DNA of 64,000 nt, taken from Phaeodactylibacter sp. Its GTDB lineage: Bacteria; Bacteroidota; Bacteroidia; Chitinophagales; Saprospiraceae. Of the stretch, positions 17,153 to 33,492 are shown in pieces. The position numbers were made by a program, and so were the translations under genes. The notes under the pieces were generated by a model. It made no database searches, had not been told where the DNA came from, and saw nothing but the letters and a program-made list of their open reading frames with translations. The DNA lies in contig NZ_JAVJSK010000020.1 of NCBI RefSeq assembly GCF_040219495.1, forward strand, positions 21,293 to 85,292, read 5' to 3'. How positions within the stretch are numbered: the first letter of the stretch is position 1; each line of letters opens with the position of its first letter.

Positions 17153-18079
17153 TTATCCGGACAAGCTACCCAGCGCGCCACTCACCGCCCCCGCCAAACG
17201 CGCATTATTCAGCACCAGCTCAATATTAGCTTCCAGGCTATCTCCCTGGGTTAACTGCTCGATGCGGGAGAGTAAAAAGGGCGTCAGCGCTTTACCAACG
17301 ATAGCCTGCCGCTCAGCATCCATGATAGCCTGCTCAATGACCCGGTCCATCTCCTCCTGCGGCATGGCAAAGGCCTCCGGGATGGGATTGGCAATAACGG
17401 CACCGCCATGTAGCCCGAGCTGCCATTTGGCGTGTAATACCTTCGCAATTTCCGATGCCGTTTCCATCCGGTAATCAACCGGCAAACCACTTGTACGGGT
17501 GTAAAAAGCCGGCAATTCATCCGTTTGAAAACCCAGCACCGGCACGCCCATGGTTTCCAGGTATTCCAGCGTCAGGCGCAAATCGAGGATGGACTTGGCA
17601 CCGGCACAGATCACTGCTACATCCGTCCGGGCCAGTTCCTGAAGGTCGGCGGAGATATCCATCGTTCTTTCCGCCCCCCGGTGCACCCCCCCTATGCCAC
17701 CGGTGGCAAATACGCGGATGCCCGCCAGCGCTGCGATGATCATGGTGGCGGCTACGGTGGTCGCACCATCTCCTTTCCGCGCGACCAGCACCGGCAAATC
17801 CCTGCGGCTGACTTTAGCCACGGCCGTCCCCTTTTTGCCCAAATATTCAATCTCTGCTTCGGAAAGCCCGGCCCGCAACTGCCCGCCGATGACCGCTATG
17901 GTCGCGGGCACTGCACCGCTTTCCCGCACGGCTGCTTCCACGCGCAGGGCGGTTTCTACATTTTTCGGGTAGGGCATACCGTGGGAGATGATGGTGGATT
18001 CGAGGGCGACTATGGGTTGTTGATTACGAAGGGCTGCTTTCACAACCGGCACCATTCTGACATGCTGATTTATCTGCAT
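17153..18079 (-). CDS. psuG: Pseudouridine-5'-phosphate glycosidase
   Basis: Near-colinear match to remembered E. coli PsuG/YeiN motifs: VALESTIISHGMPYP, GAVPATIAVIGG, KVSRRDLP, GATTVAATMIIAALAGIRVFATGGIGGVHRGAE, DISADLQELA, VICAGAKSILDL. Confidence 0.95.
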   Translation of the reverse strand: MQINQHVRMVPVVKAALRNQQPIVALESTIISHGMPYPKNVETALRVEAAVRESGAVPATIAVIGGQLRAGLSEAEIEYLGKKGTAVAKVSRRDLPVLVARKGDGATTVAATMIIAALAGIRVFATGGIGGVHRGAERTMDISADLQELARTDVAVICAGAKSILDLRLTLEYLETMGVPVLGFQTDELPAFYTRTSGLPVDYRMETASEIAKVLHAKWQLGLHGGAVIANPIPEAFAMPQEEMDRVIEQAIMDAERQAIVGKALTPFLLSRIEQLTQGDSLEANIELVLNNARLAGAVSGALGSLSG

Positions 18080-18216
18080 AGCTGATGTTCTTTAAAGGAT
18101 ATTTACAACTCAACTTCTCAGCACTTAAAAGCCCGTGCTGCCCTTTTTTATGAAAGAGAACAGGCAAAAACCTTTGGCTTTTAGCGACAGCGTAGGCCAG
18201 AAGAAGCCTTAGATCC

Positions 18217-20157
18217 TTACTGAGCAATGGCCCCCGCCCGTTCAGACTGCGGATTGAGCTGCAATGCCCGCCGCGCCATCTGTTGTGCCTGCCCGGTATT
18301 GCCAGCCAGCGCATGAACTTCTGCCAAATCTTCAAGAAGGGTCACATTGTCCGAGCTTACCTCTAGCCCGTAATTCAGGTACTGCAGCGCCAAAGCATAT
18401 TGCTTCTGCTGCTTAGCCATTAATTCATACCCCGCCCGATGGTAAAACCGCGCCAGTCGCTGTCCATCCTCCCGGCCATTCAGGTAGACCATGTATTGAT
18501 CAATGAAGTTGACATGTCGGGCACTTAGTATCTCGTAGAACCCTTCCAACAGCTTATCCAGGTCCCTGTTCTGCTGATACAACCCACCAAGCAAACCTCC
18601 CTTACAAGTCAAAGCATCAGAATATGCCGGATAGATTTCCAGCGCCCGGTTCACGAGTGGGAGCGCCTCTTCGAAGGTCGCCAACTGTTGAGCGCCCTGC
18701 TCTTGCAGACCTCGCTGGTACAGGGAATAGGCCATATAACTGTTTGCCCGCGCACTGTTCGTTGACACTTTAATTGCAGCCCGATTGAGGCTCATGGCGT
18801 CTTTCCAGGCGGGGAGTCGTTCGTAGGTTTTGCCAGCGTAGGCTAAGGCGGTAAGTACTAAAATGCTCAGCCCTGCTTGTTTGATCCATGAATATTGGCT
18901 TTGCCAGCCAGGTAGTTTGATGAGGAACAGATAGGCCCATAAAACACAAAAACCCAGGGAAGAAACATACACAAACCGCTCGTTCATCGGAGCGCCCACT
19001 GAAATGACAATATTAGACACAATGGACAGGGTAGAAAAGTAAAACAGGATACTCCAGGCTGGAATGGATCGCTTCCGGAACGACCGGATGCCCCAGACCA
19101 ACAGTGCCAGATTGGCGGCAAGTGAAACCAGGACCCGCCAGTCCCCCCAGCTGAGAATGGGTACCTGATAAGGGTAGTAATCGTGCGTGAGCGGGTGCGG
19201 AAAAACCAATAGCTTCAGGTATTGCCCAAGGGTGTAAGTGATCGTGGCATACTTTTCGGCAAAGCCAATCCCGATAAAAGGGTCGTTCATAATGCCCGAA
19301 ACCACCAGATCCGGATTGTACAAATACCCCACTGCATTGATCCGGATCCCTAAATAGAGCCCAAAAGAGAGCAATAACGGCAGCACACTAATGGCCACGG
19401 TTTTCAGTTCAGCTTTGGTAAACAGGTAGATACTCAGCGGAATAACCGCGAGGAAGGTTACGGCATTTTCCTTGGCTAGTAGAGCCAGTAAAAAGAGCCC
19501 GCCTGATAGCAGCAGCGCAAACCAGGACTGTTGTTTGGCATAGCGGAGGCTGTAGTACAACGTGCTAAGGGAAAGCAGCAGCACCAGTATTTCATCCCGA
19601 CCCTTGATATTCGCAACCACCTCGGTATGAATGGGGTGGAGCACAAACAGCAGCGCAATCCAAAACGGAAGCCTTTCGTACCAGGCCTGCCCTTTTTTCC
19701 CCGGGATCAGGATAGCCAGCAACCGGAAGATCAGCAGCCCGGTCAGACTGTACAAAAGGACATTGATCAGGTGGCTGTTGCCCGGATTCAAACCGTACCA
19801 TCCATACTCCACCGCAAAGGTGGCAATAGACAAAGGCCGGTAGCGGGCGCCGGCTACCAGTTCTTGTTGCTCGCCCAGGTAGCCGGTGAAACTATCCGTT
19901 GTGAAAATATCGCCGATCCCGTCCAGTCCCTTTTTCACGAAGTTGTTCTCAGACAACACCAGGACATCGTCCAGGACATAGCCGAACGTACGCGTAGTGG
20001 CGTACAGTAAAAAAGGCAGGGCGAATAACAGCAGCCCGGGCAGCGCATAGCGGCGCCAAAAGCCGGAAGGCTTGGTTTTGATCTTATCCGTCTTTGATGA
20101 CAGCTTTTTCGTTTTCCGTTTTGCCATAATGAGCCTGGTGTATTTACTGGTGCTCAA
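18217..20157 (-). CDS. Polytopic membrane protein with C-terminal TPR repeats (TMTC/PMT-like glycosyltransferase architecture)
   Basis: 646 aa with at least 10 predicted TM helices in the first ~430 aa, followed by TPR-like repeats (YSLYQRG.., ALEIYPAYSDAL.., ALQLNPQSE). Confidence 0.75.
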   Translation of the reverse strand: MSTSKYTRLIMAKRKTKKLSSKTDKIKTKPSGFWRRYALPGLLLFALPFLLYATTRTFGYVLDDVLVLSENNFVKKGLDGIGDIFTTDSFTGYLGEQQELVAGARYRPLSIATFAVEYGWYGLNPGNSHLINVLLYSLTGLLIFRLLAILIPGKKGQAWYERLPFWIALLFVLHPIHTEVVANIKGRDEILVLLLSLSTLYYSLRYAKQQSWFALLLSGGLFLLALLAKENAVTFLAVIPLSIYLFTKAELKTVAISVLPLLLSFGLYLGIRINAVGYLYNPDLVVSGIMNDPFIGIGFAEKYATITYTLGQYLKLLVFPHPLTHDYYPYQVPILSWGDWRVLVSLAANLALLVWGIRSFRKRSIPAWSILFYFSTLSIVSNIVISVGAPMNERFVYVSSLGFCVLWAYLFLIKLPGWQSQYSWIKQAGLSILVLTALAYAGKTYERLPAWKDAMSLNRAAIKVSTNSARANSYMAYSLYQRGLQEQGAQQLATFEEALPLVNRALEIYPAYSDALTCKGGLLGGLYQQNRDLDKLLEGFYEILSARHVNFIDQYMVYLNGREDGQRLARFYHRAGYELMAKQQKQYALALQYLNYGLEVSSDNVTLLEDLAEVHALAGNTGQAQQMARRALQLNPQSERAGAIAQ

Positions 20158-20260: not shown

Positions 20261-20421
20261 AGACTATGTTGGGATTTCACCCTTTGGGCTGCATTTGCCA
20301 AATTTTATCCTGAACTTCGTTGCTCTTCAGTCGCTTAACTCAGGCTAAGCTCCTTCATCCCGCCTTGTTCAGAATAAAATTTGACTACATTCGCTCCAAA
20401 AGCGAATTCCCAACATAGTCT
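20261..20421. repeat. MITE-like element, copy B (161 bp), same family as 3161..3307
   Basis: Ends are agactatgttgggatttc and gaattcccaacatagtct (inverted). The central part cttaactcaggctaagctcc parallels copy A. The right end overlaps the jetD stop codon (20420..20422). Confidence 0.55.
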
Positions 20422-21613
20422 AAAACAACGCCTCAAGTATCTGTTTGACATAGTCCAGGGGAATATGCTCTTGCTCCAGCCTCATCCGTCGGGCATTGAG
20501 CTCCTCAAACAAGGCTTTCTCCTTATTATTAAGCCCTGGCAAGTTCGCGGCCGGACTGTATGGGGCATCGTAATGAACGTATTCCGCGAATACCTTCAGC
20601 GTCTGCTCATCCATCAGGAAAGGCCGGACATGAGGATGGTGGGCCCTCAACCGGGAGAGGATTTGCAGACCGTGTGCGTCAATGTCTCCCCAGTAGAACA
20701 GCTCAACTTCTGATAGCCAGGCCACTTCCGATAGCGCCCCCACCCCAAAGCCACTTCCGAAAATACCAATCGTCTCCTTTGCCTGAGGAAGCGTTAGCAA
20801 ATTCATCAGGTTGGTATAGTTGGTCTTGTTTTCCAAAATAATGGCCCGACGCACTGTCAACTTCAGCTGTGCAAGTGCATCAAGGGGCAGCGCCAAATCC
20901 TGTACCCCGGAGAAATACTGATCCGCCAGGGAGACATCCATCAGCCTGAGGCGGACCATCGGCTGCCGGTATTTTAGCCCGTAGCGCTGTTCAAAATGGC
21001 GCACACCCCGAAATTGATCATTGATGCGGGACCCCGGCAGCACTTCATCCAGCAAGCTGATGAGTAGCCGTTTATGGGTTTCAATAAACTTGGTGGGGAT
21101 ATCCAGGGGCAGCTCCCGGATGTAATATTGCCCCGGCCTGTGCTCCTCCATGAAGTAACGGACTACTTTTAACAGCTCATTCCATTGGGTGTGATGGCTT
21201 TCCACATCAAGGGGGGAAGCGATGCACCAGAGCTGCAGACCAGGGATTGCTCCGGCGATCATAGCGGCATCTGCCATGACCTGAGCATAAGCCTGCTCGC
21301 GCTTCAGCAAGTACAAATAATCTTCAAGGGTTGCCACATAAATACTGTGGATAAAGCGGTTGCGGCCAATGCTGCGGTAATCCCGCTCTTCCCAGCTTAG
21401 GCTCCAGCCCTTAGGCTTGTAGGGGCGGCTGCGCTTTAACCATTGTTCCTGACTCGAGCGTACCTCATCAAAGTTTTCTATCCACTCCTTTGGTTTGGGC
21501 TTGCCGATACGGCTCAGGGAGCGCGGAAAGTAATCTACCTGCTCCAATCCGGCCCGCAACACCTTTGGCCACCACTTTTCCAGCTGCTGAAGGGCTGCTT
21601 TTTCGGTAATCAT
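20420..21613 (-). CDS. jetD: Wadjet JetD (DUF3322 + DUF2220/Toprim-like nuclease subunit)
   Basis: 397 aa. The C-terminal Toprim-like part reads ILENKTNY...IFGSGFGV...YWGDIDAHGLQILSRLR. Overlaps jetC by 4 nt; order and size fit jetABCD. Confidence 0.88.
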   Translation of the reverse strand: MITEKAALQQLEKWWPKVLRAGLEQVDYFPRSLSRIGKPKPKEWIENFDEVRSSQEQWLKRSRPYKPKGWSLSWEERDYRSIGRNRFIHSIYVATLEDYLYLLKREQAYAQVMADAAMIAGAIPGLQLWCIASPLDVESHHTQWNELLKVVRYFMEEHRPGQYYIRELPLDIPTKFIETHKRLLISLLDEVLPGSRINDQFRGVRHFEQRYGLKYRQPMVRLRLMDVSLADQYFSGVQDLALPLDALAQLKLTVRRAIILENKTNYTNLMNLLTLPQAKETIGIFGSGFGVGALSEVAWLSEVELFYWGDIDAHGLQILSRLRAHHPHVRPFLMDEQTLKVFAEYVHYDAPYSPAANLPGLNNKEKALFEELNARRMRLEQEHIPLDYVKQILEALF

Positions 21614-24600
21614 GACTTTGAAGTATTAACGGCTTTCTCCCGGGCTGCTTTCTCTGCCTGGTATTCCGCAATACTGATATTGCGCACCATAGACGACTGC
21701 CCGGTGGGGTTGGACACGTAGTGCACCGTCGAGATATGCTTTTCGATGACGTTGATTTTTTGCAAAGGCGTCACGATAAGCAACTGCAAATTGAGCCGCT
21801 CGAATAGCTGCAGCCCGTACCTCGTACTCTCATCCGAGCCACGCCCGAAGGCCTCATCGATTACGACAAAGCGGAAGGATCTCGACCGGGAGCGCCCCCA
21901 TTCCAGCCCAAACTGAAAGGCAATGGCGGAAGCTAGGATCGTATAGGCCAGTTTTTCCTTTTGCCCACCGGATTTACCGGAGGAGTCACTGAAATATTCA
22001 TGCAGCTCATTGGTCTCCCGGTAGCGCTCTTCGGCACCAAAGGTGTACCATTGCCTTACATCAGTTACCTTCTTCGTCCAGCGGCTATCCTCTTCGGTAT
22101 GACCACCAAAGCGGTCGAGTAGCCGCTTGACGTGCTCAAATTTTTCTTCGGTGTACAGCTCTTCGTCTGCAACATCACCGTAAGTATTGGACAGACAGGC
22201 CCGTAGATCCTGTTTGAACGTAGTGATGTCTTCACTATGTACCTGCTCTTTGGAGATACTGATGTACCGCCCGGGGTTGTAGTCAATCTCCCGCAGGTGC
22301 TGATTGATTTCGTTAATTTTACGGTTGATGTCCTGCTCGAAGTTATCGAGCTTGGACTTGAACATTAGGATGCTTTGTATGGTCTTGGTGCGCAACAGCT
22401 CCCGGAAGCGTTCTTCATGCCGGGGGATGTCATCCTTTTGCAGCCGCTCATACCGCTCGCGGAATTCGCCCACCGACCGGATATCAGCATCCACATCCAC
22501 TACTTCTTCGGGGAATTGCTGTTTGAAGGTGGTCATTTTTTGAACGATGCGCTGCGCCAGCCGGCTTTCCTGATCGCGGAATTTGCGGATCATCCCCTTA
22601 TTGCCTTCAATTTTATCCCTCAGCTGCTGTTCGGTTTTTGCCAATGCCTCTGCCGGCTCTGCCCCACTCAGATCCGGCAGGTGCTTTCGCAATTGGGCCG
22701 AGGGCTCCGGTTCGGGTATTGTGATCTCTTTACAGGCATTGAACACGCTGCCGGCCACCTCATTCGTCACTTCTTTGCCCACCGCGCTTATGGGGAGCGG
22801 TGGTAGCCCGGTTTGCTGAAGAAAGGCCGTGATTAAACCCAGCAATTTGGAAAGCGTATCCTTTTGTACGCCCTTACGCTCGTACTGCTTGCCTACCTGA
22901 GCGCGCAACTTGCGTTCGAGCGCTTCCGCCTCCACGATTTTCGCCTGCAAATCCCTCAATTCTTCCGATCCCGATTCAAGGCGCTGTTGTTCTTCCTGCA
23001 GCTGAGCAATACGGATGACAAGCGGCTTAAAATCCAGGGATTCAAATGATGGGCACTCCAGTAGCCGCTCAAGTATGCGCCGCTGTTCGTCCAAAGCCCG
23101 TTCTGTATTGCGTAATACCTTCTGCTCAGCCTGTGCGCCTGATAGCTCGCCCTGTACCTCGCGTTGTTCTTCCTCCAGCGCCTTGATTTTCGGCTTGTTG
23201 CTCCAGCCCAGAATATATTGCCGCCGGTCGTTCACATCATAGCGGTCGTCTTTGGTATGCCGCACCCGGCTGTCCTTGCTTTGGCCACCCGGTGTAAGGG
23301 CGCGGGCAGCCCGGCGGAACTCGGCCATCGTATTGCAGCAGGTGTAATCATACCGGTTGGCCAACTCCATTTCCAGCCATTCGTAAAACGGGGTATCGGT
23401 TTTGATCTGTACTTTCCGTACCAGCGAATTGGCATCCGGCTCACTATTTTGGCTGCCCCGGTGTGGCAAAGTGCGCAGGTACACCAGTTTGCCCCCGAGA
23501 TGGTTCCGGTCCAAGAAATTGCTGACGGCTTCATAGTGTTGGTCAGGGACCAGCAGGCTAAGGCCAAAGCCCCGCAGTTGCCGCTCGATCGCTCCCTCCC
23601 AGTGGGCCTCTTCCGGGAGCACCTGTAGGAGTTCGCCGGCAAAAGGCAGGTCTTCTTCCGTCAGGTTCAGCCCGGTGAGCAGCTTTTGCCGGAGCTTTAG
23701 GTTGCGCTGCGGGATTTGAGTAGGCCGCTGCCGCAGGGAGTGTAGCTCCTTGTCCAGCTCCTCCAGCCGCGCCCGGTGCTTGTCAATACGGACAGCTAAA
23801 GGGTCGCGGGCTTCCTGCAGCTCCTCCAATTGTGCCAAAGCTTGCTCTTGTTGGGCTACGAAGCGGTGCTGCTGCTCCACAAAGCCGGCCACTGCTGTTG
23901 GCATGCTTAAGCTAATCCCATGACTGCCTGCCAGGAATTGGCCCAATTCAGTAAGCTGATCTTCGTACTTACGGGCTTGCGCTCGCCGGCGCTCACTTTC
24001 TGCGCTTTGCTCTTTGATTTTCAGCTTAATTTGAGCCAACTGCTGATTGACACTCAGGTTGTCGCGGGCTGCCTTCAGCCGGGCGAGCTCTTCCCGTGAC
24101 TGTTGCTCTTGCTGCTGCAAATCAAGAATTTCGGCCTCCAGGGTTTCCCAGTCTTGTTTTAGACGATCCATGCTGCGGATCGCCGCCTGAAGCTTAGCTT
24201 TCGCAAAATAGCCAGGTAGTTCATCCAGCAGCGCTTCCAGACGATGGATTTGCTCGAGCACCTTTTCCCGCTCATCCGCTTCTTCTATCATGGGCTGCAG
24301 GAGATCGCGCTGCTGCCTTGCCTGCGCCACCAACCGGTGAGCCATAGTGAGGTCGGCATACTTCGCCACCAGCTCGTTGATGTCCTCCTGAATGTTGGTT
24401 TGCCCCAGCATCTGCTCCCGGACGAACTCGGTGAGGTTGCCGACCGATTTCATAGATACCGTCTGGTAAAACAGGTCCAGTGCTTCGGGCTGCCGGATGC
24501 CAAAAACCTGCCGGAAGCGGTCGGCATAGGCACTAAAGCTATTGAACAGCTCTGCACCCCGCTGCTTGCGCAGTTGTTTTTTGAGCTGCCGGATATCCGT

Positions 24601-25092
24601 TCCGAAGTTGCTGAAGTCCGGGTCGATCTGCAAAGCCTCCTCTGACAGCAGATAGAAGCGTTTGACGCTGTCGTCCTGCATCCAGTACACCTGTGCCAGA
24701 GTGGCGAAGGCGTCTTGAGCCGCGTTGGCAAACACCGCTAGCAGCAAGGTCAGGTGTTTATTATCGGGCCGCAGGTACACATCACGCCCTTTACTAGCCG
24801 TATTGACTTTTTCGTTTTTATAAGCACCCCGGACGTAGCTAAGGAGGTTGCGTTCCCGGCTTTCTGCTCCGGCAGCTTTGTTGTAGGTGATCTTTTGCTG
24901 AGGTACCAGTAAGGTTGTAATGGCATCTACCAACGTAGATTTTCCGGAACCAATATCGCCGGTAAGCAAGGCATTCTGACCGTTGGGGCTGATTTCCCAA
25001 ATGTGCTTGTCGAAGGTTCCCCAGTTGAGGACTTCCAGGCGTTGCAGGCGGTAACCGGCTGAGGGCATTTGTGTTTCAGGTTGAGCTGGCAT
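21610..25092 (-). CDS. jetC: Wadjet JetC (SMC/MukB-like ABC ATPase)
   Basis: 1160 aa. N-terminus LEVLNWGTFDK...LLTGDIGSGKSTLVDAI (Walker A) and a long coiled-coil middle. C-terminal signature SGGQKEKLAYTILASAIAFQ and Walker B FRFVVIDEAFGRGSD. Confidence 0.9.
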   Translation of the reverse strand: MPAQPETQMPSAGYRLQRLEVLNWGTFDKHIWEISPNGQNALLTGDIGSGKSTLVDAITTLLVPQQKITYNKAAGAESRERNLLSYVRGAYKNEKVNTASKGRDVYLRPDNKHLTLLLAVFANAAQDAFATLAQVYWMQDDSVKRFYLLSEEALQIDPDFSNFGTDIRQLKKQLRKQRGAELFNSFSAYADRFRQVFGIRQPEALDLFYQTVSMKSVGNLTEFVREQMLGQTNIQEDINELVAKYADLTMAHRLVAQARQQRDLLQPMIEEADEREKVLEQIHRLEALLDELPGYFAKAKLQAAIRSMDRLKQDWETLEAEILDLQQQEQQSREELARLKAARDNLSVNQQLAQIKLKIKEQSAESERRRAQARKYEDQLTELGQFLAGSHGISLSMPTAVAGFVEQQHRFVAQQEQALAQLEELQEARDPLAVRIDKHRARLEELDKELHSLRQRPTQIPQRNLKLRQKLLTGLNLTEEDLPFAGELLQVLPEEAHWEGAIERQLRGFGLSLLVPDQHYEAVSNFLDRNHLGGKLVYLRTLPHRGSQNSEPDANSLVRKVQIKTDTPFYEWLEMELANRYDYTCCNTMAEFRRAARALTPGGQSKDSRVRHTKDDRYDVNDRRQYILGWSNKPKIKALEEEQREVQGELSGAQAEQKVLRNTERALDEQRRILERLLECPSFESLDFKPLVIRIAQLQEEQQRLESGSEELRDLQAKIVEAEALERKLRAQVGKQYERKGVQKDTLSKLLGLITAFLQQTGLPPLPISAVGKEVTNEVAGSVFNACKEITIPEPEPSAQLRKHLPDLSGAEPAEALAKTEQQLRDKIEGNKGMIRKFRDQESRLAQRIVQKMTTFKQQFPEEVVDVDADIRSVGEFRERYERLQKDDIPRHEERFRELLRTKTIQSILMFKSKLDNFEQDINRKINEINQHLREIDYNPGRYISISKEQVHSEDITTFKQDLRACLSNTYGDVADEELYTEEKFEHVKRLLDRFGGHTEEDSRWTKKVTDVRQWYTFGAEERYRETNELHEYFSDSSGKSGGQKEKLAYTILASAIAFQFGLEWGRSRSRSFRFVVIDEAFGRGSDESTRYGLQLFERLNLQLLIVTPLQKINVIEKHISTVHYVSNPTGQSSMVRNISIAEYQAEKAAREKAVNTSKS

Positions 25093-25676
25093 CAGTATTC
25101 TTTTTGGGCTTCAGCGTAGGCTTGGAGCTGCCCGAGGATTTCGTTCAGTTTTTCGATAGGGACGTAGGCTTTCAGGATACGGCTCACTTCGTAGCGGTCT
25201 TCTTCCCGCACGGTCTGCAGGAAGCCAAAGTTGATCATTTTTTTGATGTCGGCCCGGAGCTTATCTTCCTGTTTGCGCTCATTGGCGGTGGTATCATCCC
25301 AGTACAGCCGCATCATTTCTGCGATATCGCTGTAGCGCAAGACCAACCTGACTTCGCTACCTTCTGACTCAAATTCAAGGAGGCGCTTACGCAAAAGCAC
25401 AATGAGTAGCGTTTGGTGATAACTCAACCGACGGCGGGTCATCAGGCGGGGCTGTGGTTCGGCCTCCTCTTCTTCCGGTTGCTGGCGCAGATAGGCATAA
25501 CCATCCCCTTCCTCAACGATCAATTCCAGCCCCAGCACCTCAAAATAGGTACGCAGACGCTCCCGGTATCGCAGGAGGAGGTTCCAGGCATCGAGGTGCT
25601 GCTCCCGGTACAGGATGCCCTTCAGCAGATAGACCGCCGGGGAACGGATTTCGGCTTTTACAGATGGTTCACTCAT
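25092..25676 (-). CDS. jetB: Wadjet JetB (DUF4194, MukE-like)
   Basis: 194 aa, acidic. Position and size are typical of JetB, and it is translationally coupled on both sides (1-nt and 4-nt overlaps). Confidence 0.82.
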   Translation of the reverse strand: MSEPSVKAEIRSPAVYLLKGILYREQHLDAWNLLLRYRERLRTYFEVLGLELIVEEGDGYAYLRQQPEEEEAEPQPRLMTRRRLSYHQTLLIVLLRKRLLEFESEGSEVRLVLRYSDIAEMMRLYWDDTTANERKQEDKLRADIKKMINFGFLQTVREEDRYEVSRILKAYVPIEKLNEILGQLQAYAEAQKEY

Positions 25677-27133
25677 TTCAGAAACAAGATTTGGGGCAGC
25701 TCTACGGCATAGGTACGCCCCTCGCTTTCATAAAATAATTTTTCCTGCTGTTTGGTATTGACTACTGCTTTTTGCCTGAGCTCCCACTGCGTAGCCAGGC
25801 TGAAATAGGCAACCACCTCGCTCAACCCTTTCTCTACCGGCGTATGCGCCACTATTTCTTTAAGGCTCACCTGCTTTTTGCCGCGCAGCATTTTTTGGAT
25901 TCGCCCCTTCAGCTCCTCCGGATCGATGTAGAGTTGATTGTAGAGCCCCTCTGCCAATACCTTTATAGCATTGCCCGGTACTGGCTGATCAGTTGCCAGC
26001 TGAAGCTCATCGGCAGGTTGAAAAAGGCGGCGCTCCATCACGAGGTTCACGGCAGGCTTCCCGGCGATATCGCTAAAGAAGCGTTGAGGGGGCGGATGGC
26101 TTTTGACCTGTAGAGCCAACTGCTCAATTTCTTCAATCACCTGCCCGGCACGGCGGTTTTCCAAAAAAGTACGGGAGGCCAGAAAACGGCGCAATTGTTC
26201 TATGAGGCGGGTCGTGGTCCGGTCTACCCGCTCGCCGGCCTCAACCAGCAGGATTTTAAGGCGCGGAAGTACAGAGTAGGCGCGGTAGGCTTCCAGCTCC
26301 GGCTGCTCAAACAGCTGCTCCGCCATTTGGTCGAGGCGGTCCTGCCGCTCCTGGTCCATCAAAAAAGCCCAGAAAGCCGTGAAGGTCTTCCCCTGATCCG
26401 TCTCCATGATGGCATCCTGTGCAGAGAAAATCTCGTCCAGTACCTGCCCCCGGCTGTGCTGCCGGTTGATCTGCTCTTCCCGCGCTTTGGTATTGAGCTG
26501 CCGGAAGTTCTCTTCAATCTGCCGGAAATCTGCCAGCAACTTGGCTGCGGTTTCTTCGATCAGCCCCAGCTGTTCGCGCATGCGGGTGGGGTCAAGACGG
26601 CTGACTTCGCCTTCTTCCAATTCCATAATTTGCCGGTCCAGTTCCAGGCGCTGAGCCAGGAGTTGATCAAGGCGTGCCTGTGCATCCGTGGAGCTGCCAT
26701 AGGTCAAATCCTGCAACATGTTGAAGAGCTGTAACAGCCTGGATTCAGCGCCGACAAACTCGCGCTTGTCGAGTTCTGCCATCCAAACCAGGGCTTGCTC
26801 CGTAGCCGGGGTGAGCTCGAAGGTAGCCTCCGGTGCACCTACCTCGTAGTACTGCCGCAGGAAGCCTTCCTGTGTCCATTCTTCCAGGTACGCCCGTGCA
26901 GTCCGTGGGTAAGGTTTCCCTCCCTCTTCTGCCCCTTCATTGGCGGCAAACAGAAAATCAGACAACATCGTGTTGAGCTCCTGACTGCCGTAGGCCTGCC
27001 GGCGTTCTTCGCGGAAGGCACGCCAGAGGAATGCAGCAATCATCGGGGCATGCGTTTTGCGCAAAAGCCGGACTGCCCTGTGCTCTTCCAACAACCTGCC
27101 TACCTCCTCGATATTCGAAAACCGGTCTGCCAT
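25673..27133 (-). CDS. jetA: Wadjet JetA (DUF3375, MukF-like kleisin)
   Basis: 486 aa, first gene of the four-gene jet block. The call rests on size, position and helical character. Confidence 0.82.
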   Translation of the reverse strand: MADRFSNIEEVGRLLEEHRAVRLLRKTHAPMIAAFLWRAFREERRQAYGSQELNTMLSDFLFAANEGAEEGGKPYPRTARAYLEEWTQEGFLRQYYEVGAPEATFELTPATEQALVWMAELDKREFVGAESRLLQLFNMLQDLTYGSSTDAQARLDQLLAQRLELDRQIMELEEGEVSRLDPTRMREQLGLIEETAAKLLADFRQIEENFRQLNTKAREEQINRQHSRGQVLDEIFSAQDAIMETDQGKTFTAFWAFLMDQERQDRLDQMAEQLFEQPELEAYRAYSVLPRLKILLVEAGERVDRTTTRLIEQLRRFLASRTFLENRRAGQVIEEIEQLALQVKSHPPPQRFFSDIAGKPAVNLVMERRLFQPADELQLATDQPVPGNAIKVLAEGLYNQLYIDPEELKGRIQKMLRGKKQVSLKEIVAHTPVEKGLSEVVAYFSLATQWELRQKAVVNTKQQEKLFYESEGRTYAVELPQILFLK

Positions 27134-27144
27134 AATTACCTCTT

Positions 27145-29631
27145 TTACCCCAGCTTGCTGAGCAGGCCGCCCAGCAACTTCGCCGCATTTTTGACTACAT
27201 CAGAACCCTCTACCGGGATTTTCAGATACGACTGCCCGGTTTGTTCGTCCTTTTCTACAATTTCATCCACAAGTGCCTGAGTCGCCCGCTCATCAGCAAG
27301 CGTTTCTGAAAGCCGACCCAGAAAGCTTAGCCCCTCTGACAACAGCCCTGCTCCGGAGGAGGACTGAGGCTGCCTTGCCTGTGCAGGCGATCCCTGACTG
27401 GGCTTGGGCGTTGGTTCCGGTGTTGGTTCTTCATCTTCCCACCAGGCTTCGAGTGTAGCTTCGGAGGGCTCTACCGTTTCACTTCCGCGGTTGGCAGACA
27501 CCTTCTCCAGGTCTTCGTCACTGCTGGCTTCCGCTGGTTCGTGATCAGGCATTTTTGCGGTTTTCACGCGTTCCAGCTCTTCCATAAAGTCCTTAAACTT
27601 GCGGTCACTCATGAAGACGCTATCCTGTGCCGTGTCCAGAACGGCTTCCGCCAATGACGACTTGAACTGCAGGGTCTGTAACATGCGGTGCTCTATGGTG
27701 CCTTCTGCGATGAGGTTGATGACTTGTACCTGCCGCTCCTGCCCAATGCGGAATACGCGCCCAATACGCTGCTCCAGCACTGCCGGGTTCCAGGGCAGGT
27801 CCAGGTTAATGACAAGCGCGGCTTTCTGCAAGTTGAGCCCTACGCCCCCCGCGTCTGTCGACAGGAACACCCGGCATTCGGGGTCTTCCCGAAAGCGGTC
27901 CAGCAATGCACCACGCTTACTGCCCGGAATGCTGCCGTGCAGATAGGCGAAGGGGATCTCGCGGGCTTCCAGCTCCTGAGCGACAAGGCGTGTCATGCGC
28001 TCCCATTGGCTAAACACCACCGCGCTTTCGCCTGCTTCTGCAAGGTGCTCCTCCAGAATGTAAAACAGCTCGTCGAGCTTGGTATCGTGACGGGTTTGCT
28101 GATCAATCAGGTAGGTACTGTTGCAGGACATGCGCATGAGATTGAGGCAGCTCAGCAAACGCCTGCGGTCTTTTTCGGTGAGAAAGCCCATACGCTGCCA
28201 TTTAGCCACCAACTGTGCTACGTCAGCATCATAACTGTTGTGCATTTCCATCTGCCGGGGCGTCATCGGCACCAATAGCTGCTGATCCCGCCGCGGAGGC
28301 AACTGCTTGAGTACTTCCCGCTTTCGGCGTCGGATCATCACCTTATTCAATTTGTTGTAGATAGCATCCAGGTTACGGTAGCCCCGCACGATGCCGTTTT
28401 CGTCTTTCACCTGATGCCGGTAAAGCAATAAATAAAGTGGCCCCATCAGGTATTGGTCCAGAAACTGAACAATAGAATAAAGGTCTTCCAACTTATTTTC
28501 CAGAGGGGTGCCGGTGAGTGCGATCCGGTAGGGTGCTTCCAACCGCTTTACTGCCCGGGCAATTTTTGTGTCCCAGTTTTTGATCCGCTGGGCTTCGTCA
28601 ATGACTAATAAATCCGGATTTGCGGCATTCAGATGAGGGTAATCCCTGGCCACCACATTATAGGTCAGTATTTTATAGACCGGCTCAAAGTCGTCATACT
28701 GCGCTCTGCGTTTGTGGGCAGGCCCTTCCACCACGTGTGCCTGCTGTCCGGTAAACCGTTCGATTTCAGAACGCCACTGATACTTGAGCGAAGTAGGACA
28801 AATGATAAAAACACTGCTGATGCCCATCTCGCGCCGGTAAAGCTCTGCAGCGGCTATCGCCTGAATGGTTTTGCCCAGGCCCATCTCATCAGCAATAAGG
28901 CAACGACCGGCTCTGAAGGCAAACAGGATGCCTTCCTCCTGATAAGGATATAGGGTAGTTTGGACCAGGCCGTCGAGTCCACCGGGCGCTTTCGCTAATG
29001 TTGCAGCCCTGCCGCTCCGCTGTGTATCAGCCCGCTTTTGAATAACGAAATCCAGCACATCCGGATAGCAACGAAAAGCCGGAGCAAGTCCCCGGGCTTT
29101 TTCTAAAAACTGGTCAAAATCCGGATAGGCATACTCATAGAGCACCCCAGCCTCATCAAAGTAGTCTTGGGCCAGTTTTTGCAGCGCTTCCGCTTCCTCT
29201 CCTCCGAGGCGCAGGCGCAAACGCCGCTCTTCCCCATACTCCAGATAAACAGAACTGTAATTGCGGGCTGGCGGTGGCTTACGAAAGTGCTGCTTATTGC
29301 CATGGGTATTGTATAGCTTGTGAAGTGCCCATTCGATATGCTTGCAGGTGCCTAGCGCATTAGTTTTAAAATCCATGCATTCACAAAAGTTCCCCCCGGG
29401 CTCCTGCCCTCTGAGCGCTACCCGGTAGTGGCTGTTCCGCTCTGGATTGATCACCGTGAAATCGGACCAGACCGGGTGCTCACCTTCGTTGACCAACTGA
29501 AAAGCCTGCTCTTTGCCATATTGCTTTCTAAGGTTGACCTGCCAGTCCCGGAGGGTCATTTCTTCCGGCTGCCGGTAGTAGCTTACCTTTTTGGGCTTCT
29601 TCTGCTTCTTTTCTGCTTTCTTTTTAGCCAT
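27145..29631 (-). CDS. SNF2-family helicase with N-terminal SWIM zinc finger
   Basis: SWIM motif CECMDFKTNALGTCKHIEW. SNF2 motifs ADEMGLGKTIQAIA, DEAQRIKN, LTGTPLEN, STDAGGVGLNLQ and QRIGRVFRIGQ, plus an acidic low-complexity C-terminal tail. Its stop is 11 nt upstream of the jetA start. Confidence 0.9.
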   Translation of the reverse strand: MAKKKAEKKQKKPKKVSYYRQPEEMTLRDWQVNLRKQYGKEQAFQLVNEGEHPVWSDFTVINPERNSHYRVALRGQEPGGNFCECMDFKTNALGTCKHIEWALHKLYNTHGNKQHFRKPPPARNYSSVYLEYGEERRLRLRLGGEEAEALQKLAQDYFDEAGVLYEYAYPDFDQFLEKARGLAPAFRCYPDVLDFVIQKRADTQRSGRAATLAKAPGGLDGLVQTTLYPYQEEGILFAFRAGRCLIADEMGLGKTIQAIAAAELYRREMGISSVFIICPTSLKYQWRSEIERFTGQQAHVVEGPAHKRRAQYDDFEPVYKILTYNVVARDYPHLNAANPDLLVIDEAQRIKNWDTKIARAVKRLEAPYRIALTGTPLENKLEDLYSIVQFLDQYLMGPLYLLLYRHQVKDENGIVRGYRNLDAIYNKLNKVMIRRRKREVLKQLPPRRDQQLLVPMTPRQMEMHNSYDADVAQLVAKWQRMGFLTEKDRRRLLSCLNLMRMSCNSTYLIDQQTRHDTKLDELFYILEEHLAEAGESAVVFSQWERMTRLVAQELEAREIPFAYLHGSIPGSKRGALLDRFREDPECRVFLSTDAGGVGLNLQKAALVINLDLPWNPAVLEQRIGRVFRIGQERQVQVINLIAEGTIEHRMLQTLQFKSSLAEAVLDTAQDSVFMSDRKFKDFMEELERVKTAKMPDHEPAEASSDEDLEKVSANRGSETVEPSEATLEAWWEDEEPTPEPTPKPSQGSPAQARQPQSSSGAGLLSEGLSFLGRLSETLADERATQALVDEIVEKDEQTGQSYLKIPVEGSDVVKNAAKLLGGLLSKLG

Positions 29632-29719: not shown

Positions 29720-30136
29720 CTACATCCAAAGCACCGTAATCGCCTTCTGCTCATACTCCTGCTCCTCTCGCCGAATGCGTTCCTCCCAAGGCTGCTCAAT
29801 GGATGTAGGGCTTGGCCTCAAAGATCATGAGATAGCCGTGCTGTTGACCCAGCTTGTCCATGTAGCGGCCGAGTTGGCGCAGACCATCGGACAAGGTATA
29901 GCTATCGTAGCGAATTTTCAACTCAATGGGGACCAGCTGGCCTTTCCAAAAAACAGCCAGGTCTGTGCGGTCATTGCCAGTGGCCATTTCCCGCTCAATC
30001 CGGCCACCGCCGTTCACTACCCTTTGCAGGAAGGTCAGAAGCAGCCGGTTAACCCATCAAATAGCCCCCGAAAAGGATCCACCATATAGTGCTTCCGGGG
30101 ATCACACAAGCCCGCTGTGTTGAAAAATCGCTTCAT
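29720..30136 (-). pseudogene. Decayed AAA-ATPase/PD-(D/E)XK (PDDEXK_9-type) gene: N-terminal 33 codons joined to the C-terminal nuclease part, plus a frameshift
   Basis: Minus strand reads MKRFFNTAGLCDPRKHYMVDPF..stop. In another frame it reads LLLTFLQRVVNGGGRIEREMATGNDRTDL..VPIELK...YLMIFEAKP. After a further frameshift it reads EQPWEERIRREEQEYEQKAITVLWM-stop. The whole P-loop region is missing. Confidence 0.7.
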
Positions 30137-30451
30137 AAATGTAAAGTTAAGTAATCTCCAGTAGCCCTGCATATTTGAACAGCAGCTAAGTGGTTACCCT
30201 CGCCACAGCTCATTTTCGTCGGAATTCTGTACAGCTTCGACGAGGAAAATGGAAGAATCAGTGAATTTTAACACATTTTAAGATCGTATTCAGAATAACA
30301 GGGTAAGAAAGTACCCATTCCTGAAATGATATACTGAGGATTAGCCAACCGAGCAACGCTCCGCGCTAGCGCCTCCCCGACACAACATCAACAAATTACT
30401 GTATAACCCTTGCTTGCTGTGCCCCCGCTGCAAGCTTAAAAACCTTTGCCA

Positions 30452-31120
30452 ATGCAAGACCTTCTGAATGCTGCAATAGCGGGCGTCAACCTGCCCTTCA
30501 CTTTGCTGCTAGGCCTCGTCATCCTGTACTGGCTGTCGGTCATACTCGGGGCAGTAGACCTCAGCGCTTTCGACTTTGATGTCGATGCGGAGGTTGATCT
30601 TGATGTAGACGCCGATATCGATACCGATGTAGACGCAGGCGGTATGAGCGGCTGGTTCGCCGGGGCCTTGCATTTTTTCAACTTCGGGCGTGTGCCCTTT
30701 ATGCTGGTCCTCACCGCGACGGTGCTTACTGCCTGGGTACTCGCCATTTTGGGCAACCACTATCTGGGGCATTACAGCCCTGCCTACGCGCTGGCCACTG
30801 CCGTCCCCATCTTGTTCATTGGGCTACTGGTGTCCAAAGTGGTTACAACGCCATTTGTGCCGATCTTTGAGCAAATCAGCAAGGAAGCACAACCCATGGA
30901 CTACATCGGGCAAGCCTGTGAGCTGATCCTGCCGGCCAGCTTTACGCAAATGGGGCAGGCCCGGGTACAGGTAGAAGACGACGAGCTACTCATCTATGTC
31001 AAAACAGCAACGCCTGAACTGCAACTGCCAAGCGGGGCCAAGGGGGTGGTCTCCCGTACTGCCCCTGATGGCAGCCACTACCTCATACGGCCCTATCCGG
31101 AAGACGAACCCCTTCTGTAA
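30452..31120 (+). CDS. YqiJ/NfeD-like inner-membrane protein (DUF1449-type) with an acidic (DxD)n loop
   Basis: LHFFNFGRVPFMLVL matches remembered E. coli YqiJ LHYLNIGRLPALVVL. Has 3-4 TM helices and a C-terminal soluble beta-domain (YIGQACELI...QARVQVED). Loop sequence DFDVDAEVDLDVDADIDTDVDAGG. The ORF track starts at TTG 30446; the ATG is at 30452. Confidence 0.75.
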   Translation: MQDLLNAAIAGVNLPFTLLLGLVILYWLSVILGAVDLSAFDFDVDAEVDLDVDADIDTDVDAGGMSGWFAGALHFFNFGRVPFMLVLTATVLTAWVLAILGNHYLGHYSPAYALATAVPILFIGLLVSKVVTTPFVPIFEQISKEAQPMDYIGQACELILPASFTQMGQARVQVEDDELLIYVKTATPELQLPSGAKGVVSRTAPDGSHYLIRPYPEDEPLL

Positions 31121-31189
31121 TCACAACATACACGGCGCAGTACGCTGCTCCTGAACACATAAATTGACAAACCCTTAAATTCTCAATCC

Positions 31190-33313
31190 ATGATCTTACT
31201 CCAAAACCTGGCCGGCCCATTGGGCTGGACCGTACTGGGCATCAGCCTGTTGGTGGTCTTCGGCCTCATCGTCATGCTCATTAGCTGGTACAAGAAAGTG
31301 CCACAGGGCAAAGCCATCATCCGTACTGGCGTAGGCGGCACCAAAGTCGCCATCGAAAACGGCATCATTGTAGTGCCTGGTATTCAGATGCACGAAGTGA
31401 TGGACCTCTCCGTGCGCACCATCGAAATCAGCCGCATGAAGGAAGATGGCCTGATCTGCAAAGACAATATCCGCGCGGACACCAAAGTCGTTTTCTTTGT
31501 GCGTATCAATAAAGAAGTGGCTGACATCAAAAAGGTCGCACAGTCTATCGGCTGTGAGCGGGCCTCAGATACCGCCACCCTGCGGGAGCTGTTTGAAGCC
31601 AAATTCTCAGAAGCCATCAAAACGGTAGGTAAGCGCTTCGACTTTGTGGAGCTCTACGACAGCCGCGAGAAATTCAACTCTGAAATACAGAACGCCATCG
31701 GGCTCAACCTCAATGGCTACATCCTGGAGGATGCTTCCATCGACTACCTGGAGCAGACCGACATCAGCTACCTTAAGGAAAACAACATCCTCGATGCCGA
31801 GGGTATCAAAAAGATCACCGAGCTGACCGCACAGCAGAAGGTGAAAGCCAACTTCATCCGCCGTGAGGAGGAGAAGACCATCACCGAGCAGAATGCGGAA
31901 GCCAAGGAAGCTATACTGGAATACGAGCGCCAACTCATCGAGAAAGAAGAGCGGCAGAAGCGGGAAGTGGCCAACATCAGAGCCCGGGAAACCGCCGAAA
32001 TCGCCAAAATCAATGAAGAAGAGCGCCTGCGTTCCGAAATGGTCCGCATCAAAACGGAGGAGGAGCTTCAGGTCGCCGAAGAAAACCGTATGCGGCAGGT
32101 GATTGTCGCCCTGAAAAACAAGGAGCGGACCGAAGCCATCGAGCAGGAGCGCGTAGAGAAAGACCGTATGCTGGAGCGCACCGAGCGCGAGAAGATTGTC
32201 ACCCTGGCCGAAATCGAGAAGCAGCGCGCGGTGGAAGAAGAGAAGAAGAACATTCAGGACGTCATCCGCGACCGCATCATGGTGGAGAAGAAGGTGGTCG
32301 AGCAGGAAGAGATCATCAAAGACACCAAGGTACTGGCTGAGGCCGAGCGCTTGCGGCAGAAGGAAGTCATTCAGGCGCAGGCCAAAGGCGAAGCCACCGT
32401 GATTGAGCAGCAGAAGAATGCTGAAGCAGCTAAGCTCGCCGCCGAAATGCAGGCCGAGAAGCTCCTGATCGACGCCGAGGCGCAGAAAAATGCCGCTGAG
32501 AAGGAAGCCGAAGCCCGCAAGATTCAGGCCGAAGCAACTGCCGCCGAAGAAGCCACTATCGGATTGTCGGAAGCACAGGTGATCGAGGCCAAAGCAAAAG
32601 CCAGGGAGCTGGAAGGCAAACTGGAAGCCAGCGTGTTGGAGCGCAAAGCTCAGGCCGAAGCCATCGGCATTGAAGCTAAAGCCGAAGCACTGCGCAAGCA
32701 GGGCCGTGCCGAGGCCGAAGTAGCCGACGAGAAAGGACAGGCTGATGCCCGTGTGCTGGAGCTGAAGTTTGCTGCCGAAGCCAAGGGCATTGAGCAGAAA
32801 GCAAACGCTATGAAAGAGCTGGACGGTGTGGGCCGCGAGCACGAGGAGTTCAAGATCCGACTGGAAACCGACAAGGAGATTCAGCTGGCCAATATCAATG
32901 TCTCCAAGGATATCGCTAACGCACAGGCAGGCGTCCTCGGTGAGGCCATGAAGCACGCCAACATCGACATCGTAGGCGGTGAAATGCAGTTTGTCAACAG
33001 TATCCTCAACTCCGTACAGCGGGGCAAGAGTATCGACGGTTTGATCAACAACAGCAGCCACCTGAGCAACCTCAGCCAAAACCTGCTGCCAGCATCCGGC
33101 TCAAATGGTGATGGCCTGCTCTCCCAACTGGGCAGCCTCATCCGCCGTGCCGGCCTGACGATGGACGACATCAAGGACCTCACCCTCACCGCTCTGCTGC
33201 TGCGCCTCGGCGAGCAGTCCGGCAACGTGGAGGAGAAAAGCCTGCTCAAGCGCCTGACCACCAAAGTGGAGGAGTTGGGGCTGGGGGGGCTTAGTGCGGG
33301 GCAATTGCTCTAG
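31190..33313 (+). CDS. Flotillin-family SPFH/Band-7 protein (YqiK-like) with an extended E/A/K-rich coiled coil
   Basis: N-terminal TM, then an SPFH region (YKKVPQGKAIIRTGVGG...DLSVRTIEI...VFFVRINK). More than 400 aa of EA/EK-rich coiled coil follow. The gene order after the yqiJ-like gene mirrors E. coli yqiJK. Confidence 0.9.
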   Translation: MILLQNLAGPLGWTVLGISLLVVFGLIVMLISWYKKVPQGKAIIRTGVGGTKVAIENGIIVVPGIQMHEVMDLSVRTIEISRMKEDGLICKDNIRADTKVVFFVRINKEVADIKKVAQSIGCERASDTATLRELFEAKFSEAIKTVGKRFDFVELYDSREKFNSEIQNAIGLNLNGYILEDASIDYLEQTDISYLKENNILDAEGIKKITELTAQQKVKANFIRREEEKTITEQNAEAKEAILEYERQLIEKEERQKREVANIRARETAEIAKINEEERLRSEMVRIKTEEELQVAEENRMRQVIVALKNKERTEAIEQERVEKDRMLERTEREKIVTLAEIEKQRAVEEEKKNIQDVIRDRIMVEKKVVEQEEIIKDTKVLAEAERLRQKEVIQAQAKGEATVIEQQKNAEAAKLAAEMQAEKLLIDAEAQKNAAEKEAEARKIQAEATAAEEATIGLSEAQVIEAKAKARELEGKLEASVLERKAQAEAIGIEAKAEALRKQGRAEAEVADEKGQADARVLELKFAAEAKGIEQKANAMKELDGVGREHEEFKIRLETDKEIQLANINVSKDIANAQAGVLGEAMKHANIDIVGGEMQFVNSILNSVQRGKSIDGLINNSSHLSNLSQNLLPASGSNGDGLLSQLGSLIRRAGLTMDDIKDLTLTALLLRLGEQSGNVEEKSLLKRLTTKVEELGLGGLSAGQLL

Positions 33314-33321
33314 AGTAGGCC

Positions 33322-33458
33322 GGGGGAGGTTGAGGTTGAGGATAAGGTTGAGGCATACACGGCATGTTCTCCAGCCGCGGCAGCTAGCTGCCGTGCCAGG
33401 CGTACACGTCACCGCTCGCCTCAACCTCAACCTCAGCCTTAACCTCAGCCTCATCCCC
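33322..33458 (+). promoter_or_regulatory. Nested cruciform/stem-loop in the flotillin-AAA+ intergenic region, with arms built from GAGGTT/AACCTC hexamer repeats
   Basis: 33326..33354 pairs with 33418..33446: about 29 positions with 2 mismatches and 2 G-U by manual pairing. The loop contains the perfect palindrome cggcagct/agctgccg (33378..33393). No T-tract follows. Confidence 0.7.
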
Positions 33459-33492
33459 AAGTCCCATTCCAAACCAACAAAACCTCAAAGCA

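Follow-up and report, generated by a model that had tools for sequence, protein, structure and literature searches.

Wadjet, also named MksBEFG or EptABCD, is the best-understood SMC loop extruder that serves as an immune sensor. Small circular plasmids are restricted by the type I system, which extrudes DNA loops and cuts with JetD. In eukaryotes, remodellers of the SNF2 family assist SMC complexes, as RSC does with the cohesin loader, and SNF2 enzymes of the Mot1, RapA and CSB type translocate on double-stranded DNA and remove or reposition the proteins bound to it. The SWIM domain was first noted in bacterial SWI2/SNF2 ATPases, and actinobacterial HelZ-type SNF2 genes have SWIM-protein neighbours. 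To our knowledge, bacterial SWIM/SNF2 proteins have no known function. The present analysis concerns a window of 64,000 nucleotides (nt) from Phaeodactylibacter sp. (contig NZ_JAVJSK010000020.1, positions 21,293 to 85,292 of the forward strand), in which a gene for a SWIM-type SNF2 ATPase stands directly in front of the Wadjet genes jetA, jetB, jetC and jetD. A review presents Wadjet as a system of four genes and three types in which all four genes are required, and it names no helicase partner (PMC10586767). A domain survey listed the Snf2 domain for Zorya I, Helicase+DUF2290 and DISARM; Wadjet was not among them (PMC10952713). An earlier note on this DNA had stated that SNF2 helicases are not described as Wadjet subunits. 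This statement held, as neither a report of such a subunit nor a description of the SNF2-Wadjet pairing was found in the searchable full-text literature, a scope outside which key subscription papers lie, so that an earlier mention is possible. Judged from genome comparison, the association of the two is real and not an accident of the window genome, and its recurrence suggests an optional but real partnership across unrelated bacteria.

The jetABCD genes of the window are a complete and intact type I Wadjet. The PADLOC models JetA1, JetB1, JetC1 and JetD1 all matched the window proteins at full length (E 4e-154 to 0). JetA gave 386.7 bits with PF11855 (cut-off 28.6) over positions 13-484 of its 486 amino acids (aa) and an E value of 4.3e-154 with JetA1. 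JetB was recognised by PF13835 (138.5 bits), PF21980 (65.5 bits) and JetB1 (2.5e-63). The domain plan of JetC consists of an N-terminal P-loop AAA_29 (PF13555, aa 16-76), a long coiled-coil region and a C-terminal SbcC/Rad50-type Walker B (PF13558, aa 1008-1098 of 1160 aa), and JetC1 matched it with 1305.9 bits over aa 9-1152. JetD was recognised by PF11795 (119.7 bits), PF09983 (154.3 bits) and JetD1 (4e-131). The genes lie in the order A-B-C-D on a single strand in an operon-like arrangement, and the chain of 4-, 1- and 4-nt overlaps read in the earlier note is confirmed by the coordinates of the open reading frames (ORFs; Table 1). In all of this the locus is like the canonical type I system, with a DUF3375 JetA, a DUF4194 JetB, an SMC-like JetC and a JetD composed of DUF3322 and Toprim. 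It differs by a fifth gene, which encodes the SNF2 ATPase and precedes jetA by 11 nt in the same orientation. Inspection of the sequence places the SNF2 stop codon TAA at 27147-27145 and the jetA ATG at 27133, with aagaggtaatt between them, exactly as had been claimed. All five genes are intact and their catalytic motifs are present (Pfam, PADLOC and translations).

The arrangement would allow a single transcript of all five genes, as the earlier note had supposed. The spacer is short, and neither a terminator-like hairpin within the final ~900 nt of the SNF2 gene nor a sigma-70-like site near the SNF2-jetA junction was found on the coding strand. Co-transcription of the SNF2 gene with jetABCD would therefore be the simplest reading, given the 11-nt spacer and the hairpin-free 3' end, and the promoter of this transcript would lie either before the SNF2 gene or within it. 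The sigma-70 scan returned 7 sites versus 6.6 in shuffled sequence, i.e. no excess. The Bacteroidota -7 motif TAnnTTTG is absent across the whole 10.5-kb minus-strand region, hence the promoter search is uninformative. In Phaeodactylibacter luteus the spacer has the same length of 11 nt and reads aaaatacagca. A Shine-Dalgarno-like reading of the element aagagg is not supported, as the element is not conserved in the P. luteus slot. Guanine-plus-cytosine (GC) content and skew of the window showed no clear break that would mark the block as a recent import.

The pairing recurs beyond the window. P. luteus, whose SNF2 protein is 84% identical to that of the window, has the same layout of SNF2, 11 nt and jetABCD. 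In L088 (Saprospiraceae bacterium DHS20C18, SNF2 identity 74%), the SNF2 gene is followed after 352 nt by jetABCD, and the flanks are wholly unlike those of the window, so that just the SNF2-jetABCD block is common to both. Within Saprospiraceae, the pair has thus been kept while its flanks were replaced. The 352-nt spacer of L088 holds a 167-nt nested palindrome (9689-9855, arms of 25 nt and 18 nt). It could be an insertion resembling a miniature inverted-repeat transposable element or a repetitive extragenic palindromic element, which would have widened an originally short spacer. Of eight SNF2 homologues picked only by identity and extent of contig, three are directly followed by Wadjet genes in the same orientation. 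L085 (= L008) carries the only intact adjacent Wadjet of 80 loci from the GTDB species representatives that were seeded on the SNF2 protein; it is convergent and lies 40 nt from the SNF2 stop. In L086 (= L007) a JetD_C remnant precedes the SNF2 gene by 25 nt. The remnant is a 72-aa ORF (5177-5395) that matches just the C-terminal end of JetD and lies downstream of a TPR histidine kinase gene. It is probably what is left of a Wadjet formerly in front of the SNF2 gene, in the gene order of the metagenome locus L096 described below.

The pairing also appears in a high-GC, Polyangia-like clade, in which the SNF2 proteins are 29-32% identical to the window protein and have the same architecture. 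At the P0254 locus the order is SNF2, 2 nt, jetA, a BrnT/BrnA pair, jetB, jetC and jetD. Toxin-antitoxin cassettes sit between jetA and jetB in Polyangia-type Wadjet, of which this pair is an instance. In L174 the SNF2 gene is followed after 54 nt by a type II Wadjet, whose JetA2, JetB2, JetC2 and JetD2 were confirmed by PADLOC. Orthologous SNF2 genes (64% identical) precede either a type I or a type II Wadjet, and a single ancestral synteny is not an easy explanation.

The same was observed from the Wadjet side. An alignment of JetA was used to seed 80 metagenome loci, mostly at 35-42% identity, and in three of them (L137, L139 and L096) a SWIM-SNF2 gene is directly adjacent on the same strand. 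The SNF2 gene lies 9 nt upstream of jetA in L137 and 6 nt upstream in L139. In L096, a metagenome contig with 42% GC, it lies downstream of jetD, and the SNF2 ATG overlaps the jetD TGA by 4 nt (ATGA). L137 was downgraded as a clean example; a VapBC-like insertion and a second copy of the jetA 3' end come after its jetA, and the contig ends without any jetBCD. The insertion (11497-12461) consists of a VapBC-like pair on the opposite strand and then a 77-aa duplicate of the jetA 3' end. Flanks of at least 2.5 kb were available upstream in 45 loci and downstream of jetD in 26, giving 71 informative flanks. With generously one family member per genome among ~4000 genes, at most 0.02 adjacencies are expected by chance in these 71 flanks, versus two observed and one partial. 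On this estimate, chance adjacency of SNF2 and Wadjet is very unlikely.

In sum, same-strand pairing with a complete Wadjet is found in the window, L001 and L088 of the Saprospiraceae, in L139 and the P0254 locus of the Polyangia-like clade with type I, in L174 with type II, and in L096 at the 3' position. It covers three distant SNF2/JetA lineages, two Wadjet types and both gene orders, with spacers of -4, 2, 6, 9, 11 and 54 nt, besides the 352-nt spacer and the convergent case. The earlier note had named an adjacency unique to this genome or clade as grounds for giving up the idea. Such a restriction does not apply, in view of P. luteus, L088, the Polyangia-like clade including L174, and L096; confinement to the window genome in particular is ruled out by P. 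luteus, L088, L174, the P0254 locus and the metagenome loci. In the JetA tree, which leaves out L137 and L139 (JetA 37-38% identical to that of the window), the SNF2-linked loci fall into two distinct clades. The earlier note had also asked whether the two phylogenies co-vary. Four Saprospiraceae taxa are common to the SNF2 and JetA trees, and their branching is in agreement, which fits co-inheritance, selected or not.

The SNF2 protein of the window is a genuine SNF2 ATPase. Pfam reported SNF2-rel_dom (PF00176, 1.3e-44, 152.9 bits, cut-off 24.9) and Helicase_C (PF00271, 9e-26, 90.7 bits, cut-off 23.5). The motifs GLGKT, DEAQ and QRIGRVFRIGQ are present and mostly invariant among homologues, so the full SNF2 motif set of the earlier note, with Walker A, DExQ, motif VI and both Pfam lobes, was borne out. 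Its SWIM finger stood as a signature: the CxCx10CxH pattern is present and invariant in 78 aligned homologues. Recognition by Pfam did not follow, as the window protein gave no match with PF04434 up to E<=5. With the same motif aligned, PF04434 gave 17.9 bits in L137, below the cut-off of 19.6, and 23.6 bits in L096, above it. The SWIM call for the window protein is made because of the invariant signature and the L096 homologue that passes the Pfam cut-off. The L096 protein (gene 6836-9508) is also extended at its N-terminus, where a further CxC...CxH motif (CSCENQTCEH) lies, and two stretches of the protein are matched by Pfam SWIM. The AlphaFold2 model of the window protein has a mean predicted local distance difference test score (pLDDT) of 79, with a confident N-terminal domain and a canonical two-lobe SNF2 motor. 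An acidic linker (aa 694-778), disordered in the model with a pLDDT below 50, precedes the short C-terminal module, and this module is also found in SNF2 homologues that have no Wadjet neighbour. The fold matches in the PDB were SNF2 motors (E 1e-29), with Mot1, the Sulfolobus SNF2 core, ISWI, INO80 and CSB as the best and Rad54 besides. The fold search with the whole protein returned exclusively SNF2 motors, and neither its N- nor its C-terminal part drew a useful Pfam match at E<=5.

The motor core is shared with the SNF2 proteins of known defence systems, namely DISARM DrmD, Zorya ZorD, Dpd DpdE and BREX BrxH. The PADLOC models of ZorD and DpdE match aa ~211-685 with E values down to 7e-68, and this range covers the motor alone. 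The window protein differs from these four in having no Mrr or PLD nuclease domain, and its SWIM N-terminal domain and C-terminal module are specific to its own family. The NCBIfam models for DrmD scored far below their cut-offs (NF038317, 153 bits versus 610; NF038318, 149 versus 950), and so did those for ZorD (144 versus 1500), DpdE (132 versus 500) and RapA (85 versus 576). No DISARM genes were found among the tested neighbours. A fusion of Wadjet with DISARM, Zorya or Dpd was therefore rejected, because the matches are confined to the motor, the scores are far below the cut-offs and no partner genes lie nearby; the earlier note had offered a two-system fusion as one of its readings. Mot1 and CSB, protein-displacing enzymes like RapA (HepA), are among the best structural matches of the model. 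RapA itself differs by its score and its other accessory domains, and the data imply no link to RNA polymerase or TBP. As in other bacterial SWIM/SNF2 proteins, a SWIM CxCxnCxH signature is joined to a SNF2 motor; the SCO1167/SCO6262 helicase of NCBIfam differs in that its match covers the motor only (273 versus 1200 bits). The likeness to the cooperation of RSC and cohesin is an analogy only, i.e. a SNF2 translocase and an SMC extruder on common DNA, and no homology of accessory domains was found.

The family to which the SNF2 protein belongs is large. At least 596 stretches among the GTDB species representatives were matched by it. The relatives nearest to it belong to Phaeodactylibacter, Lewinella/Neolewinella, Haliscomenobacter and further Saprospiraceae, which agrees with a Phaeodactylibacter-like source of the window, and full-length relatives at 44-50% identity occur in Bacteroidota, Planctomycetota, the candidate phyla radiation and some bins labelled as other phyla. 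Six full-length members at 46-49% identity (L026, L030, L033, L042, L044 and L053) come from contigs that bear the labels Lachnospiraceae, Oribacterium, Eubacteriales, Waltera or Limnohabitans. In the tree, several of these members group within Bacteroidota clades, for which bin contamination or horizontal transfer is possible. Defined by the first 222 aa only, the family comprises 1114 clusters at 50% identity (E<=1e-3), or 497 at E<=1e-10; this domain is always N-terminal in its proteins, and the complete ones have ~800-870 aa. A neighbour-joining tree of 84 SNF2 relatives largely tracks taxonomy, and clustering of the flanks of 84 SNF2-seeded loci gave no conserved partner gene. According to Pfam and PADLOC, the 129 immediate neighbours of the SNF2 gene in the 80 GTDB loci are heterogeneous and mostly unrelated to defence; AAA_14/DUF4143, Schlafen-AlbA_2, RecQ, iPGM, a tRNA synthetase and GcpE are among them. 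Wadjet was the sole known defence system seen to adjoin the SNF2 gene in several separate lineages, mostly in targeted look-ups and not in the survey of 129 neighbours. No NCBIfam family reached its cut-off on the window protein, and the pilus-regulating Snf2 was likewise matched in the motor only. A tblastn search of a plasmid collection with the SNF2 protein gave motor-only matches with at most 61% coverage. In IMG/VR a single weak JetA relative was found, and the top 80 SNF2 matches were confined to the motor. By the IMG/VR matches, the family does not look phage-borne; judged from its distribution, it is an unnamed, chromosomal and mostly vertically inherited family.

The reading preferred here, which is given about an even chance, is that the SNF2 protein acts as a facultative accessory DNA translocase, co-expressed with Wadjet and working on the same DNA. 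A resident SWIM-type SNF2 translocase gene would have been joined head to tail with an intact type I Wadjet operon, and members of the family would repeatedly have become Wadjet operon partners in a minority of lineages, with types I and II and at the 5' or 3' end. Their proteins would act on a DNA substrate common to the JetABC loop extruder. By analogy with Mot1, RapA and CSB, the SNF2 protein could strip DNA-bound proteins that block extrusion on plasmids; alternatively, it could remove, reset or unload stalled JetABC. The repeated operon-style joining with Wadjet specifically argues for a functional link over general defence-island clustering. That SWIM-SNF2 is an unrecognised facultative fifth component of type I and II Wadjet, which cooperates physically or functionally with JetABC, for example in roadblock clearing or in chromosomal unloading against self-cleavage, is a tentative proposal. 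Several observations weigh against the preferred reading. L090, L091 and L093, whose JetA homologues at 57-63% identity are of the Saprospiraceae type, have jetABCD and no SNF2 gene within 10 kb upstream. The SNF2 gene is carried by one of the 45 upstream-informative and one of the 26 downstream-informative type I loci, a share of ~2-4% of those sampled; the earlier note had suggested such a check of jetA homologues. Conversely, the 80 GTDB loci yielded one intact Wadjet neighbour and one remnant, both in Saprospiraceae, and neither type I nor type II Wadjet was present in any of the ~70 loci outside that family; tblastn with the JetA2-D2 proteins of L174 found no type II Wadjet in the GTDB loci. 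Even close relatives such as L002 (75% identity), Haliscomenobacter L003, L005 and L006 have no Wadjet beside the SNF2 gene. In the Polyangia-like clade, L172, L173 and L175 have it without Wadjet, and the L172 protein is 80% identical to that of L137. The convergent layout of L085 excludes co-transcription there, and in the window a jetA promoter inside the SNF2 3' end is possible because Bacteroidota promoter prediction is uninformative. The four-gene system was sufficient in the systems tested (PMC10586767). Because the family is overwhelmingly stand-alone and tracks taxonomy, its members have a function of their own for which Wadjet is not required.

The idea of the earlier note that the SNF2 gene is a fifth cistron of Wadjet was not sustained, in so far as the gene is not Wadjet-specific: the family is large and mostly stand-alone, and nearly all sampled Wadjets are without SNF2 and vice versa. 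On the comparative evidence, the protein is not a core subunit, because its family is stand-alone, most Wadjets have no SNF2 gene and four genes suffice in the systems tested (PMC10586767). An obligate fifth subunit, stoichiometric in the complex and required for its activity, would agree with the tight, translationally coupled spacing and with the intactness of both genes in all adjacent cases examined save the L086 remnant and the disrupted L137 operon. It is improbable, however, as the nearest Wadjet relatives L090, L091 and L093 have no adjacent SNF2 gene (though a family member may lie elsewhere in the genome), Wadjet-linked SNF2 proteins show no distinguishing domain or insertion versus unlinked orthologues, the two are convergent and separately transcribed in L085, and L086 kept its SNF2 gene after the loss of Wadjet.

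The two could also be independent neighbours, the SNF2 gene having a housekeeping or otherwise separate role and Wadjet landing and persisting beside it, either because the site is a hotspot for integration or defence genes or by promoter borrowing, with no mechanistic cooperation. This explanation is possible, and it is held with limited confidence. The SNF2 tree that follows taxonomy, the lack of a conserved partner and the many members without Wadjet all fit it. Behind orthologous SNF2 genes, one and the same slot holds either a type I or a type II cassette, which a hotspot predicts, and the spacing ranges up to 352 nt and to the convergent layout. In L173, in L174 and at the P0254 locus, the surroundings of the SNF2 gene include toxin-antitoxin, AbiEi and BilB-like genes, and as some Polyangia-type loci stand among toxin-antitoxin or Abi-like genes, co-localisation in islands could contribute, a further point against partnership. 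PADLOC gave no match on neighbours in the Wadjet-less Polyangia-type loci save one BilB-like protein. Yet a hotspot should hold varied defence systems, whereas only Wadjet was identified in the slot and the GTDB neighbours are mostly unrelated to defence. At least three distant lineages show the pairing, their spacers measuring -4 to 11 nt, and promoter capture is no explanation for L096, where the SNF2 gene is at the 3' end and translationally coupled to jetD. Highly improbable is a neutral inherited synteny, in which one ancestral Saprospiraceae insertion stayed unbroken and the cases elsewhere arose by chance. The agreement of SNF2 and JetA topologies among the shared Saprospiraceae taxa, and the loss of adjacency in L002, L005, L006 and L091, are what unselected linkage predicts. 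It does not account for the separate occurrences in the Polyangia-like clade with types I and II and in L096 with the opposite order, nor for two to three adjacencies in a sample where chance predicts at most 0.02. Moreover, the flanks have turned over completely while the pair was kept, and three orientations occur within Saprospiraceae, adjacent in all.

Around the block, the gene directly upstream of the SNF2 gene is an internally deleted AAA-ATPase remnant and is probably not part of the system. In P. luteus the AAA-ATPase gene is intact, has the same orientation as the SNF2 gene and stops 23 nt short of the SNF2 start, and this species may hence have a six-gene string that includes it. 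A divergent three-gene cluster on the plus strand (30446-38319) adjoins the Wadjet block and is syntenic in P. luteus. It encodes a YqiJ_N-type membrane protein of 224 aa, a protein of 707 aa for which Pfam gave no match and a DUF3686/DUF7902/AAA_5 protein of 1608 aa, whose DUF3686 is annotated as 'ATPase involved in DNA repair'; PADLOC gave no match for the 707-aa and 1608-aa proteins. On the other side (17153-20157, minus strand), genes for a TPR/TMTC-like protein of 646 aa and an indigoidine-synthase-A-like protein lie between jetD and a TPR histidine kinase/LytTR pair. Both are absent at the P. luteus counterpart, where the kinase directly follows jetD. At 3349-6015 on the plus strand, an 888-aa UvrD-like superfamily-1 helicase with ankyrin repeats is encoded, an unusual combination.

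Table 1. Features of the SNF2-Wadjet block and its upstream neighbour; positions are those of the 64,000-nt window.
Feature	Position	Strand	Remarks
SWIM-type SNF2 ATPase gene, first gene of the block	27145..29631	minus	ORF of 828 aa; Pfam SNF2-rel_dom and Helicase_C
N-terminal domain (aa 1-222), family-specific, holds the SWIM signature	28966..29631	minus	pLDDT ~81-95 over aa 11-220
SWIM signature CECMDFKTNALGTCKH (C83/C85/C96/H98)	29338..29385	minus	Four ligand residues invariant in 78 homologues
Walker A of the SNF2 motor, GLGKT	28867..28881	minus	G251, L252, G253 and T255 invariant, K254 nearly so (family alignments)
Walker B / motif II, DEAQ	28588..28599	minus	D345, E346 and Q348 invariant
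Short conserved C-terminal module (~aa 779-828)	27148..27297	minus	Conserved block ...TGQxYLKIPVE...LLGGL; pLDDT 51-69
SNF2-jetA spacer, aagaggtaatt	27134..27144	minus	11 nt; no space for a terminator
jetA, kleisin-like, DUF3375	25673..27133	minus	486 aa; Pfam DUF3375 2e-115; PADLOC JetA1 4e-154, full length
jetB, KITE-like, DUF4194/MksE	25092..25676	minus	194 aa; overlaps jetA by 4 nt; Pfam, PADLOC
jetC, SMC-like ATPase	21610..25092	minus	1160 aa; overlaps jetB by 1 nt; AAA_29 and SbcC_Walker_B; PADLOC JetC1 1306 bits, full length
jetD, DUF3322 and Toprim-type JetD_C nuclease	20420..21613	minus	397 aa; overlaps jetC by 4 nt; Pfam, PADLOC
AAA-ATPase gene remnant directly upstream of SNF2, internally deleted	29808..30172	minus	Of the intact P. 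luteus protein (532 aa), tblastn recovers only aa 1-41 and aa 427-505

How Wadjet handles DNA-bound obstacles and how it spares the chromosome are puzzles of the system, and the SNF2 translocase is a concrete, testable candidate for an auxiliary. The pairing may be a bacterial parallel to the cooperation of remodellers with SMC complexes in eukaryotes. If the partnership is true, it would link a SNF2 remodeller with an SMC motor for the first time in prokaryotes, and it would open a first way to the function of the widespread SWIM-SNF2 family of ~500-1100 clusters at 50% identity. The five-gene SNF2-jetABCD layout could be flagged by defence-system finders. If only a hotspot effect is at work, the locus would still be an example of a core gene that marks an insertion site of Wadjet.

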